This document shows, piece by piece, positions 6,287 to 10,970 of a stretch of DNA of 64,000 nucleotides. Source of the DNA: Longimicrobiales bacterium (GTDB taxonomy: Bacteria; Gemmatimonadota; Gemmatimonadetes; Longimicrobiales; Gaopeijiaceae); the NCBI GenBank assembly GCA_965219445.1, contig CBDCNQ010000004.1, positions 320,001 through 384,000 of the forward strand. Reading direction: 5' to 3'. The first letter of the stretch is position 1; every line of letters begins with the position of its first letter. The position numbers and the translations under genes are program-made. The notes beneath the pieces are model-generated. The model did not search any database and was not told the DNA's origin. It worked only from the letters and a program-made list of their open reading frames with translations.

Positions 6287-6793
6287 TCATCGGATCAGCC
6301 GTCGCACCGGGACACTGCCTCGGGTCGTCATCTCGATCGGGTGGTCGCCCAATGGCGTGTCCACCGTGAGTTTCGTCTCAAGTGTATAGCCGATCGTACC
6401 CCGCTCCAACAGAGCACGTGCCCCCGCGCCAACTCCCCCCCAACCGAAAGAGAGTGGGAGTTCGATGGGAGTGACCGCCTGTGAGCCGAACCTGGTGGAG
6501 CCATCGAGGAATGCCTCGCCGAAACGAGTGCCCTCGAAGTCGATGGCCATGTCGATCTGACCCGTACGGAGATCATAGGAATTGGGGTTGTCCACGTCGA
6601 CCAGGAGCGTGAGTGATCCACCCGTGAGGCCGAGTCCGTCGATTTGGACCGAAGTGAGGTCGAAGTCGGGCGACTCGAAGCCGCCTTGCTGGAACATCGC
6701 ACACCCACTTGGCACGAGCGCCCAAATCAGGGCAACACAACGAGAGATGGAGATTTTCCCCGCGAAATGGCCGGCATGAACACGTTTTCTCGT
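6287..6793 (-). pseudogene. LEA_2/WHy-domain lipoprotein with its start removed at the IS256 boundary
   Basis: 'VDVDNPNSYDL' LEA_2 motif; frame stays open through a signal peptide (RKRVHAGHFAGKISISRCVALIWALVPSG-C) up to the IS end at 6794 with no start codon ahead of it. Confidence 0.7.
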
Positions 6794-6960
6794 GAGCTAG
6801 GATCAAAGGCATCATAGGGGCATGGCGACCGCTACCGGTACCGATCAGCAGCTAAGCAGCCCGAAGACGAAGAGGCGTTCTCCTCCGGGAGCGGGTGCGC
6901 GTTCATCATTATTCGCGCAAGCAAGCAACCCAACCCGTCCTACCCAAGAGGAGGATGCCC

Positions 6961-8015
6961 ATGGAGAGGTATATCGGACTCGACGCACACGCGTCGAGCT
7001 GCACGCTGGGGATTGTAGGCCCCAGCGGCAAGCGCTTGGGCTCGCAGGTGGTGGAGACGAACGCGCGGGCGCTGATCGAGGTGCTGCGAGGGATTCCGAG
7101 GAACCGGCACTTATGCCTGGAAGAAGGGACGCTGTCGGGGTGGCTGTACGAGGTGCTGAAGCCGCACGTGGAGGAGCTGACGGTGGCGGGGGTCGGCAAG
7201 AGCCGGGGCCCGAAGACCGACAAGCTGGACGCGTTTGCCCTGGCGGAGAAGCTGCGGATCGGATCACTGGAGACGACGGTCTACAAGAACCGGGGCCAGT
7301 TCAGGCGGCTGGGGGAACGGGCGAAGAGCTACGACTTCTTGGTCGGCGACACGGTGCGGGTGAAGAACCGGCTCAAGAGCGTGCTGCGCTCGAGAGGAGT
7401 GGCCTACGGCGCGGGGCGCTCGGTCTACTTAAAGCGCGACCGGGAGGAGTGGTTGGCCAAGCTGCCGGAAGCGAGCAGGACGACGGCCGGGTTGCTGTAC
7501 GAGGAGCACGACGCACTCGTGGCATTGAGGGCGAAGGCCGAGAAGGCGTTGCTGGCGGAAGCACGCAAGCATCGAGAGTGGCATGTGCTGAAGACGTGCC
7601 CGGGTCTGGGTCCGATCCGGACGGCGGAGCTCCTGCCGGTGGTGGTGACGCCGTACCGGTTCCAGAGCCGGAGCAGGTTCTGGGCGTACTGCGGACTGGG
7701 CGTGGTGATGCGGAGCTCGTCGGACTGGGTGCGGGGTCCGGGTGGGCGGTGGGTAAGGGAACCGGTACAGCAGACGCGGGGGCTGAATCGGAACTTCAAC
7801 CACACGCTGAAGCGTGTGTTCAAGGGCGCAGCGACGACGGTGATCGGTCGGGCCGAGGACGAGCCCTTGTACCGCCACTACGAGCGACTCCTGGAGGGGG
7901 GCACGAAGCCGAATCTGGCGAAGCTGACGATCGCGCGTCAGCTCGCCTCGATCGTGCTAGCGGTGTGGCGCACGGGCGAAGCGTACGACCCAAGAGACTG
8001 GAAGCGACGGAGTAA
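6961..8015 (+). CDS. IS110 DEDD transposase/recombinase (1-nt deletion near 7990 relative to copy 2)
   Basis: YIGLDAH, LEEG, KTDKLDA (DEDD), PGLGP, YCGLG..RSSS serine motif; GAGGAGG RBS. Confidence 0.93.
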
Positions 8016-8092
8016 ACCGGCCTGGGATCGGCGAGCGTGGGGTCGAAAGCGGTCACAACATGGGGTCCGACGAAACGGAAGCGAACCGGTTA

Positions 8093-8228
8093 CAGGGGAC
8101 AGCATCCATACACACCGTGGGCCGGGGCAGAGAGCCCAAGCCCCCACTCAAAGGCTATGCACCCCTGGAAGAGCCGAACGAAGCGATGGGCCACAGAGTC
8201 CCAGATAGAAGGATGGTTCCCGCTCCAG
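8093..8228 (+). ncRNA. Putative bridge/seek RNA core (target-binding and donor-binding loops)
   Basis: Stem CAGGGG..GCAT/ATGC.CCCCTG encloses loop strands TACACACC (8109-8116) and TCAAAGG (8148-8154) matching the insertion target; second stem-loop carries ATAGAAGG (8205-8212) matching the element end; transcript ends unknown. Confidence 0.8.
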
Positions 8229-8382
8229 AGCGGAGAACGCGACGGCTGTGAACGTCTTCCGGACTGCGATGCGGACCCTGCGAGCGCACCCCTCCCCACC
8301 CTGAGTCGTCGACCGGGCAATCCAAACCATGCGGACGCCGACGGTCAAAAAATGAGCCGACGGCGCGTGGGGAAGGTGCGTC

Positions 8383-8405
8383 TTGACCGCCAGCCCCATA
8401 GAAGG
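8383..8405 (+). promoter_or_regulatory. -35 half of a circle-junction promoter
   Basis: TTGACC at 8383-8388; joining the ends places CATCAT (6810-6815) exactly 17 bp downstream. Confidence 0.7.
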
Positions 8406-8501
8406 GTGTGTAAAAAAAGAGGCGACGTACCTTTCCGCTAGGTAGTAAGAAGTTAACCAGCGAATCCCGGGTGAGCGCCCGGGGGAAAGGAACGATGCCT
8501 C

Positions 8502-9746
8502 GTGAGGAAGAATATGGTGGGACCCGAGAGTGAGTCCAGCACGCCGACGTGGGAGTGCTTGGAAGCGCTGGTTCGTGAGAAGGCCCAGGAGATGGTCCAG
8601 CGGATTCTGGAGGAGGAAGTGACGGAGTTGCTCGGCCGGGAGAAGTCGGAGCGGAAGACGGTCGTAGACCCGGCGCCAGGCTACCGCAACGGCTACGGCA
8701 AGGCTCGGCGGCTGGCGATGAGCTCGGGCACGATCATGCTCCGACGGCCCCGGGTTCGAGGCATTGAGGAGCGGTTCGAGAGTCGGGTGTTGCCGTTGTT
8801 CGCACGACGGACGAAGGAGGTGGGTGCTCTGCTTCCGGAGCTGTATCTGCACGGGCTGGCGGAGGGAGACTTCGAGCTGGCGATGCGGGGCCTGCTGGGC
8901 GAGGGGGCCCCGTTGTCGAAGTCTTCGATTTGGCGGCTGCGGGCGGGATGGACAAGGAAATTCGAGGAATGGTCGAAGCGCTCGCTGGCCGACCGTGAGG
9001 TCGTCTACGTCTGGGCGGACGGGATCTACGTGAAGGCGGGGCTCGAGCGGGACAAGGCAGCGCTGCTGGTGGTTCTCGGTGCGATGCGAGATGGTACGAA
9101 GGAGGTGTTGGCCCTGAGATCGGGCTACCGAGAGTCGGTCGAGTCCTGGTCCGAGGTGTTGCGGGATCTGAAGGCACGCGGCATCGAGGCGCCCCGGCTT
9201 TTGATGGCGGACGGCAACGCGGCGATCTGGGGCGCAGTACGGCAGGTATGGCCTGAGGCGGGCGAGCAACGGTGCTGGAACCACAAGATGAGGAACGTGC
9301 TGGACCGGCTGCCTCAGCGGGAGCAGAGCGAGGCGAAGGACCTTCTCAGGACCGTGGTCTACGCACCGAGGCGGTCCGAGGCGCTGAAGGCCCGTGAGGC
9401 GTTCGCCAGGCGCTACAGACCGTGGTATCCGAAGGCGGTGGATGTACTCGAGGACGACTGGGAGCGGATGGTGGCGTTCTACGACTTCCCCGAGGACCAC
9501 TGGAAGCATCTACGCACGACGAACGTGGTCGAGAGCCCCTTTGCCGCAGTACGGCTCAGGACAACGGCGGCGAAGCGCTTCAAGCGGGTCGAGAGCGCTA
9601 CGGCGCTGATCTGGAAGCTGCTCTTGGTGGCGGAGAAGCGCTTCAGAAGGCTCGACGCTCCTCACCTCCTCAAGGACGTATTTGAAGGAAGAAAGTTCGA
9701 AGACGGAAAGCCCGTCTCAACCCAACAGCGGAAAAACGCCGCCTGA
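8502..9746 (+). CDS. IS256-family (Mutator) DDE transposase
   Basis: YRNGY, LYLHGL, WADG, MADG, QRCWNH, LRTTNVVES motifs; 414 aa. Confidence 0.95.
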   Translation: MRKNMVGPESESSTPTWECLEALVREKAQEMVQRILEEEVTELLGREKSERKTVVDPAPGYRNGYGKARRLAMSSGTIMLRRPRVRGIEERFESRVLPLFARRTKEVGALLPELYLHGLAEGDFELAMRGLLGEGAPLSKSSIWRLRAGWTRKFEEWSKRSLADREVVYVWADGIYVKAGLERDKAALLVVLGAMRDGTKEVLALRSGYRESVESWSEVLRDLKARGIEAPRLLMADGNAAIWGAVRQVWPEAGEQRCWNHKMRNVLDRLPQREQSEAKDLLRTVVYAPRRSEALKAREAFARRYRPWYPKAVDVLEDDWERMVAFYDFPEDHWKHLRTTNVVESPFAAVRLRTTAAKRFKRVESATALIWKLLLVAEKRFRRLDAPHLLKDVFEGRKFEDGKPVSTQQRKNAA

Positions 9747-9775
9747 AACATTTACACACCTATTGACCCAACCTC

Positions 9776-10970
9776 CTCGGGTAACGCCCATATCCTGAGC
9801 AACAACCATGTGATGGCGAACTCCAACAACGCCAGCATTGGGGACAACATCCTGCAACCCGGGCCGTTCGACGGAGGCTCCGCCCCGGCGGACATCATCG
9901 GCACCCTCTCTGCGTTTGAGGAGATCAGGTTCGACGGCAGCAACAACGTCATAGACGCCGCGATCGCGAGCGTCGCCCCGGGCGATGTGATGTCCCATAC
10001 CGGGAATGAGGGATATGGCCAGCCGAGCGCCACAACGGTGGCGGCTACAACCGGCATGTCGGTGACGAAGTACGGCCGCACGACCGAGGCAACCGTCGGC
10101 ACCGTGGATGCAACCAACGCCACGGTCGATGTCTGTTACCAGACGCAAGGCCCATTTCGTTGTAAAAAACTCGCCCGCTATGTGGGCCAGGTCGTCATCA
10201 CCCCCGGCACATTTAGCGACGGAGGGGATTCCGGATCGGGGATCGTGACAAATGACAACAACCTAAACCCGGTGGCACTCCTCTTCGCGGGAAGCTCATC
10301 GTATACGATCGCCAATCCGATCGACGCGGTGTTGAGCGCGTTCAACGTTACGATCGACGACGGCAGTGGCAGTACGGGCGGCAGCGGTGGGGGCAACAGC
10401 TCCCCGACAGCGTCGTTTACGTCCAGTTGCTCGAACCTCACTTGCAGCTTCGACGGATCGGGCTCCTCCGACGACGGTTCGATTGCGAGCTGGGACTGGG
10501 ACTTCGGCGACGGGAGCCCGGCGGAGTCCGGCCCGACGCCCCAACACACTTACAGCGGGAACGGCACGTACAACGTGACGCTGACTGTCACAGACGATGA
10601 AGGTGCAACCGACACGGAGAGCCAGAATGTCTCGGTCACGCAGCCGGCTACGGGTCAGCACGTCGGCGATCTCGACGGTAGCGGCCAAAACAACGGCTCT
10701 ACCTGGACGGCCGTTGTCACGATCACCGTCCACGATGCCAACCACTCGCCGGTCGCGGGGTTCTCGGTGACCGGCTTATGGTCGGGGCCCGTTGCCGGAT
10801 CCGGGGACTGCATCACAGGCCCGAATGGTCAATGCACGGTGAGTCGCGGGGGTATACGGAAGCGGGACGGAAGCGTGCAATATGACGTGACGAATGGATC
10901 GGCGACGGACGACAACCACGACCCGGATGGTGATAGCGACGGGACCACGATTACGGTGACTAAACCGTAG
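9776..10970 (+). pseudogene. 5'-truncated trypsin-like (Nal1-type) serine protease with PKD domain
   Basis: Frame begins at the IS end with 'ILSNNHV' (His), 'IDAAIA' (Asp), 'GDSGS' (Ser), 'K.GRTT', PKD 'WDFGDG'; signal peptide and prodomain absent. Confidence 0.8.

Follow-up and report, generated by a model that had tools for sequence, protein, structure and literature searches.

An IS110-family element of a Longimicrobiales bacterium with an IS1111-like layout and a candidate two-loop bridge RNA matching the end of IS256

Some insertion sequences of the IS110 family and IS1111 group land in the terminal repeats of other mobile elements: IS1383 reportedly targets the inverted repeats of IS1384, and IS4321/IS5075 are said to target the terminal repeats of Tn21-family transposons. 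The element described here behaves likewise, with the differences that its host belongs to the IS256 family and that its main variant uses the left repeat only.

For IS621, a CT core, handshake pairing and a junction promoter have been described (PMC11208158), as has a strong preference for core pairing on both strands (PMC11208160), and handshake pairing and strand exchange in bridge recombinases are described in PMC13626964. Our locus shares with IS621 and ISCro4/IS622 a recombinase composed of a DEDD RuvC and a serine Tnp domain of common fold (PMC11208160, PMC11208158, PMC13626964). It also shares an RNA with target and donor internal loops, the CT core and the junction promoter geometry (bioRxiv 10.1101/2025.05.14.653916), with handshake dinucleotides after each right guide. 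As far as those accounts extend, it departs from IS621 and ISCro4 in that the RNA lies 3' rather than 5' of the gene, that the RNA reads target and donor in an orientation opposite to that of the gene and that the left donor guide is weak; eight guide-paired bases (7-9 across the clade) lie left of the core, compared with seven in IS621.

In its layout the locus resembles the IS1111 group with a seekRNA (ISEc11, ISKpn4, ISPst6 and ISPa11), for which a long 3' non-coding region, a top-strand match that precedes the bottom-strand match along the RNA, subterminal repeats whose short extensions are asymmetric, and natural reprogramming among relatives are described (PMC11187229). The subterminal inverted repeats of that group are 11-13 bp long, perfect or nearly so, with extensions of ~7 and 3 bp (PMC11187229); the repeat here is 13 bp long with 10 matches, and its extensions total 10 bases including one core. 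Many IS1111 RNAs have a multi-loop (PMC11208160) at the place of the simple second loop found here, whose guide tracks the element end. Bridge RNAs have been predicted in 93% of catalogued IS1111 elements, mostly at the right end (PMC11208160), and in 32190 loci of a recent survey (10.64898/2026.10.21.760802). The RNA-guided mechanism and the targeting of other elements' ends by IS110 elements are already published, and our element, with the working mode of IS621 and the layout of IS1111 elements, is a new example of both. IS256 ends as an IS110 target were not found in the publications searched, and ISfinder, TnCentral, bioRxiv supplements and subscription journals may bear on this point; the name IS256 does not occur in the searched portions of the supplements of PMC11208160 and PMC11187229.

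The window analyzed here is a stretch of 64,000 nucleotides (positions 320,001 to 384,000 of contig CBDCNQ010000004.1, assembly GCA_965219445.1), and plain positions below count from its first letter. Within it, an IS110-family element (6809-8404; the element proper is 6809-8402 plus one core) interrupts the left inverted repeat (IRL) of an IS256 element (6794-9775) that has terminal repeats of 25 bp. The recombinase gene is surrounded by 152 bases of non-coding DNA upstream and 387 downstream (Table 1). That the targeting loop of a guide RNA (8093-8167) steers this element into the end of an IS256-family element is well supported. We regard it as highly probable that the element, with its IS1111-like layout, uses a two-loop bridge RNA made from its own 3' end and set to the IS256 IRL. 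The original prediction had assigned the locus to an IS621-type architecture; its arrangement is instead of the IS1111 type, with a 3' RNA in which the top-strand match comes first.

Table 1. Features of the IS110-family element and its IS256 host in the window
Feature	Position	Strand	Basis
IS256 IRL, outer 15 bp, with right-target half (6803-6806) and left AG core (6807-6808)	6794-6808	+	Inverted match to 9751-9775
Left non-coding end of the element, with -10-like hexamer (6810-6815) and left subterminal repeat (6815-6827)	6809-6960	+	24 genome copies; promoter geometry; repeat match
DEDD recombinase gene, 351-aa allele	6961-8015	+	PF01548 and PF02371; residues; model match to IS621/ISCro4
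Target-binding loop; outer stems 8094-8098/8162-8166 and 8102-8105/8157-8160, inner stem 8119-8122/8140-8143	8094-8166	+	RNAalifold and pair counts, 56 sequences
Left target guide; 8109-8116 complementary to 8405-8412; opposite the core 8117-8118, with one mismatched and one matched base	8109-8118	+	Hypervariable columns; right-flank covariation
Right target guide (8148-8153; four target bases and core) and handshake guide (8154-8155)	8148-8155	+	Left-junction identity
Donor-binding loop; closing stem 8172-8176/8214-8218, inner stem 8188-8191/8198-8201	8172-8218	+	RNAalifold and pair counts
Donor-loop guides: left 8178-8184 (weak, 5/7), right 8205-8211 (7/7), handshake 8212-8213		+	
Element right end, with -35-like hexamer (8383-8388) and right subterminal repeat (8388-8400); element closes at 8402, followed by right AG core (8403-8404)	8383-8404	+	
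IS256 IRL, inner 10 bp, with left-target half (8405-8412)	8405-8414	+	
IS256-family transposase of the host element	8502-9746	+	PF00872; NF033543, 295 bits (cut-off 150)
IS256 right inverted repeat	9751-9775	-	

Both PF01548 (DEDD) and PF02371 score over their Pfam cut-offs in the recombinase. The NCBIfam model NF033542 reaches 112 bits against a cut-off of 140, which marks the protein as a divergent IS110 member. Residues D8, E54, E55, D87 and D90 show no variation among 77 homologues (77/77) and S253 is conserved in 76, three frameshifted rows having been dropped from the alignment; an alignment to IS621 agrees with their assignment as DEDD residues and catalytic serine. A structure model (pLDDT 88) has its best matches in IS621 and ISCro4 (E 4e-13 to 1e-11), which share 17-19% identity with it when structurally aligned. 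Its closest named relatives, at 95-99%, occur in Longimicrobiales genomes; no close catalogued relative was found, as plasmid matches reach at most 27% identity among the best 15 of 51, and all 51 lie below 60%. In 17 of 23 copies the gene ends at the 351-aa stop (8013-8015), as it does in one internally deleted copy. The window copy and four others of the 23 lack a C at ~7988 (7988-7990), and their frame extends the C-terminus through the RNA region, running to 8208 in the window copy; the C is present in both non-RNA runs. An extra A at 8169 was seen in 8 of the 23 copies.

The RNA region (8090-8220) lies downstream of the recombinase gene, not in the left end. Stems had been proposed at 8093-8098/8162-8167, 8102-8105/8157-8160 and 8117-8121/8143-8147, bracketing the loop strands 8109-8116 and 8148-8154; all of them are located as described, and the strands fall within an internal loop when 8085-8175 is folded with RNAfold. 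The fold energy of that segment is unremarkable relative to shuffles (z -1.0), and single-sequence folding energy is no better than shuffles. A scan of 6700-9900 against Rfam returned no family and two chance hits under the gathering score. Starting from 188 homologous loci, of which 182 had a recombinase match and 141 enough downstream DNA, the scaffold was recovered by profile match in 130 of the 141 downstream regions, and it is conserved down to ~40% protein identity among homologues that span 39-100%. Its least conserved columns are those of the guides (8109-8117 and 8146-8151) and the hairpin apices. RNAalifold was applied to 56 sequences, obtained from 62 distinct ones by swapping one for the window and omitting six with large indels or high divergence, and it found the two tandem internal loops unaided. 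In this alignment both partners vary at 15 of the 27 pairs, and 92.9% of cells are paired compared with 35-50% in slid controls; because the sequences are related, the shuffle control is inflated, and the conclusion rests mainly on the slid control and on the counts for each pair. The proposed inner stem 8117-8121/8143-8147 was rejected as a conserved helix, with 63.6% of cells paired versus 63.0% in shuffles and 170 of 500 shuffles equal or higher; the conserved inner helix is formed by 8119-8122 with 8140-8143.

The match of both guides to the IRL was borne out: 8109-8116 is the reverse complement of 8405-8412 and is thus complementary to the + strand, and 8148-8154 equals 6803-6809, its bases 8148-8153 being complementary to the - strand. 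Covariation of the guides with flanking DNA had been named as the check, and in homologues both loop strands do covary with the element flanks. Junctions were mapped in 119 loci of at least 42% identity using end-internal motifs that exclude flank and core, which located 92 right and 82 left junctions. The left guide matches the right flank at 5.71 of 7 positions, compared with 3.02 when permuted (28 guide clusters; 0 of 5000 permutations, scored by the same best-of-three rule), and the right guide matches the left flank at 3.55 of 4 positions compared with 1.22 (11 clusters; 0 of 5000). Among 74 unique guide/flank pairs, at least six of seven bases match in 42 and fewer than six in 32. Positions 8148-8151 are identical to the left junction in 50-52 of 58 cases. 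One locus (L122) has IS256 guides yet an old-type left flank. The commonest guide class in the clade, which includes many of the loci L041-L188, points to a loose intergenic motif; no gene or element common to its target surroundings was found.

Guides as short as these might resemble their flanks by chance or through capture of flanking sequence, with the site chosen by protein-DNA contacts or by the IS256 transposase; the fold z of ~-1 would agree with this. Its probability is nonetheless very small, as both matches arose jointly in 3 of 20000 dinucleotide shuffles of 8016-8380, insertions outside IS256 are still guide-like (C2:336726 in the own genome; L210), and the covariation, which extends across 28 guide classes, already contradicts it. 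A different question is where the core lies. The original prediction had proposed a CC/GG core within a 7+2+5 target of exact IS621 geometry, and this split does fit the window letters; four bases are common to both window junctions, so that the core cannot be placed from the window copy alone. In 51 unique loci with both junctions, the shared positions are an A (48/51) followed by G or A (45/51). The base after AG is a G on the left in 51/51 and on the right in 38/51, differing between the junctions in the other 13. Invariant on the left and variable on the right, that base belongs to the left end of the element, and the core is AG on the + strand (CT on the - strand), as in IS621. Five copies in a related genome (G064) carry the same left guide and have an A on the right where the next base on the left is a G, and the base after AG changes along with RNA position 8154. 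The CC/GG register, which was rejected on these grounds and is off by one base, is therefore highly improbable. Position 8154, the seventh base of the second guide, had been taken to read the target; it follows the first base of the element (58/58 loci; G-G in 55 and A-A in 3) and, with 8155 (55/58), repeats the first two bases of the left end, making the pair the handshake guide of the IS621 model. Nor is a fixed 7+2+5 geometry present across the clade: among the 39 of the 74 pairs that could be assigned clearly, the spacing of the left guide from the core is 9 (21 pairs), 8 (12 pairs) or 7 (6 pairs), and two guides occur in two registers. The window copy has eight guide-paired bases on one side of the core and four on the other, and of the left-guide bases opposite the core, 8117 and 8118, one is mismatched. 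Of the predicted natural bridge RNA with a CC/GG core, what stands is thus the guide-directed insertion into the IRL, given the covariation and 23 of 24 left ends, and not the core.

A further alternative is that the target-loop RNA (~8085-8170) is by itself the guide, that the protein reads the element ends through the subterminal repeats and that the second loop is of minor importance. The IS1111-type layout is consistent with this, as are the weak left donor guide (8178-8184), which matches at 5 of 7 positions and hardly varies, and the finding that RNAs of 70-100 nt predominate and suffice for movement (PMC11187229). We judge it unlikely: the stems of the second loop are conserved with compensatory changes, the subterminal repeat is not perfect (10/13), and the right donor guide (8205-8211) equals the element's right end together with the core and varies as that end does. 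Positions 8205-8208 agree with the right end in all 37 unique pairs and follow its changes, and tracking of the element end is seen at 8206, 8207 and 8209. A two-loop bridge RNA is the reading we prefer. By the covariation, the target loop reads the two strands of the target, with 8109-8116 to one side of the core and 8148-8153 to the other, and the second loop reads the element's own right end via 8205-8211.

By analogy with IS621 and IS1111 work, the element would circularize at its AG cores, bringing the -35 box of the right end and the -10 box of the left end 17 bases apart so that recombinase and RNA are transcribed; expression of the RNA and its binding by the recombinase are likewise expected from that work. 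The boxes match at 5 of 6 (8383-8388) and 4 of 6 positions (6810-6815) with the 17-base spacing. A promoter scan of the linear element gave 0 sites, and as the two boxes come together in the circle only, the promoter would appear only across the circle junction. A tetramer with DEDD and serine active sites would then carry out strand exchange at the AG/CT core. Handshake pairing (8154-8155 and 8212-8213) would take place only after exchange and so favor insertion. The multicopy IS256 IRL would offer a non-essential, self-renewing landing site. Contigs of two RNA runs (Logan, 0.10 share) cover mainly IS256 relatives with almost nothing over the element and are uninformative on expression; a circle joint was not seen in the contigs of four runs, which is a weak test. 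The predicted empty IRL does exist: contigs of three public runs fuse the outer part of the IRL to 8402 onward, with loose ends, and the empty IRL is intact in related genomes. In both, the empty IRL equals the two flanks joined over one core, as expected if the element recombines at a short core, does not truly duplicate its target and restores the empty site on removal. Whether excision in the family proceeds by cut-out or copy-out is disputed (bioRxiv 10.64898/2026.08.31.748434; 10.1101/2025.10.25.684509), and the variable guide-core spacing and the altered free ends described below bear on cut placement and on the fate of the site after excision, which recent papers still dispute.

The genome from which the window derives (4.56 Mb in 5 contigs; coordinates prefixed C are those of this assembly) contains 24 copies of each end of the element. 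The IS256 IRL contributes the sequence before 23 of the 24 left ends, with its outer part, and that directly after 21 of the 24 right ends, with its inner part. The three exceptions are a non-IS256 insertion site at C2:336726 that is still similar to both guides, a copy in which a group II intron lies four bases deeper, and a partial tandem duplication. The right repeat of IS256, which differs from the IRL at right-target positions, holds 0 copies of the element. Near-identical element copies reside in IS256 hosts with 78-100% identity to the window IS256, and insertion has accordingly been repeated. Moreover, identical IS256 hosts bear different element haplotypes and a single haplotype, as defined by informative sites, occurs in different hosts; this pattern points to repeated independent invasion, and gene conversion may be an extra contributor to the mosaic. 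Because the insertion splits the IRL 15 bp from its end, the host IS256 is probably immobilized. Several whole composites of IS256 and element are flanked by target duplications of 8-9 bp. The element adds a divergent, probably active candidate clade of bridge recombinases, with 24 copies in one genome. Its compact, fully mapped two-loop RNA comes with dozens of natural guide/target pairs, which give reprogramming rules and recommend an ortholog for screening as a genome-editing tool. The locus further provides a clean instance of one mobile element parasitizing another, in which invaded, intact and altered host ends can be counted in related genomes.

The own genome no longer holds a perfect empty target, and its five free IRLs are each one base off inside the target. 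Among 18 near-identical IS256 copies, 15 are invaded and three are free, each free one with a different change just left of the core (C4:199262, C4:1221680 and C5:267938). The bodies of these IS256 copies show 5 differences in 24534 bases, so that ~0.05 changes would be expected in the target positions of 18 copies and three were seen; background mutation was rejected as the cause. The changes resemble slightly displaced junction joins, and the three altered ends look like recombinase scars or assembly artefacts, the latter as consensus errors at polymorphic sites. In related genomes, which are not independent of one another, G064 has five invaded ends and a changed core in 10 of 10 free ends, and G063 has two invaded ends and two of two free ends imperfect. 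Perfect free ends number 31 of 33 examined (of 55 candidates) in G062, 7/8 in G061, 5/5 in G302 and 8/8 in G254, four genomes with few or no on-target elements. A general rule of a host-parasite arms race is not supported: G329 has six invaded ends together with five of five perfect free ends, G007 also retains perfect free ends, and G209 has a changed core in 37 of 40 ends with no element carrying these guides found there.

The guides themselves have changed within the clade. In a quick tree of 38 proteins of this clade, the IS256-end guide pair occurs in two branches split by well-supported nodes, requiring at least two changes. Locus L124 sits in an IS256 IRL and has 12 of 15 guide bases as in the window at 73% coding identity, with 10-13 of the 15 differing from its sisters at 91%; convergence, exchange of a loop module or templated rewriting may account for this pattern. 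Close variants show retuning of the guides: in L039 (95%) the right guide is changed and the left junction is an IS256 right repeat, and in G267 a variant guide occurs together with a variant IRL. A broader proposal, that guides are rewritten wholesale, that the register slides among 7, 8 and 9 and that one-base footprints immunize used targets, we consider doubtful. If true, IS110 elements would acquire new guides from DNA, and host and parasite elements would display a readable arms race. Literature on imprecise excision of IS1111 elements at the target, or on a theme of escape and hyperparasitism, was not found in the publications searched.

The duplications flanking the window IS256 (6786-6793 and 9776-9783) do not match each other and have their partners at C5:657022 and C4:199262; ~10 swapped pairs were counted in the own genome. 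As the partners lie at other copies, genome or assembly has been shuffled between repeats, and the swapped duplications indicate recombination between copies or assembly mis-joins. A fragment of a PKD-domain protein gene lies 3' of the IS256 (9810-10970, + strand), and the beginning of a gene that breaks off at C4:199261, where the partner duplication is found, resembles the 5' half of this gene; the IS256 probably split a secreted protease-like gene.

The IRL is a target of several kinds of element. The group II intron of the own genome (RF02001, RF01998; ~1.9 kb with a 508-aa open frame; C4:1169768-1171666, L289) lies within an IS256 IRL, four bases inside the IS110 junction (window-equivalent 8408/8409), and has 13 copies in the genome. 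Another group II intron breaks the IRL in G064 (L291), as, judged by an identical flank, it does in G007 (L257), and other inserts occur in G007 (L220) and G062 (L266). At C2:218030 (- strand) of the own genome, an outer IS256 IRL gives way to unrelated sequence after ~14 bases, so that this hotspot would have undergone another insertion or else a rearrangement. Tandem duplications of the 3' part of the element, with the whole RNA included, were found at C5:1612735-1613243 of the own genome (one extra unit) and in L192 of G063 (two extra units); they join directly after the right-end AG to gene-internal sites (window ~7895 and ~7924) and may be half-match products of the recombinase. A 95% variant in G061 (L293, 1420-1435 and ~3020) has a fragment of the IS256 right repeat on its left and unrelated DNA on its right, which suggests a deletion or a one-sided event. 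Finally, a related element in G209 (L326, L329 and L332; 80% in the 3' end) has guides and flanks that resemble the left end of IS110-like elements, and is possibly an IS110 aimed at the end of another IS110.
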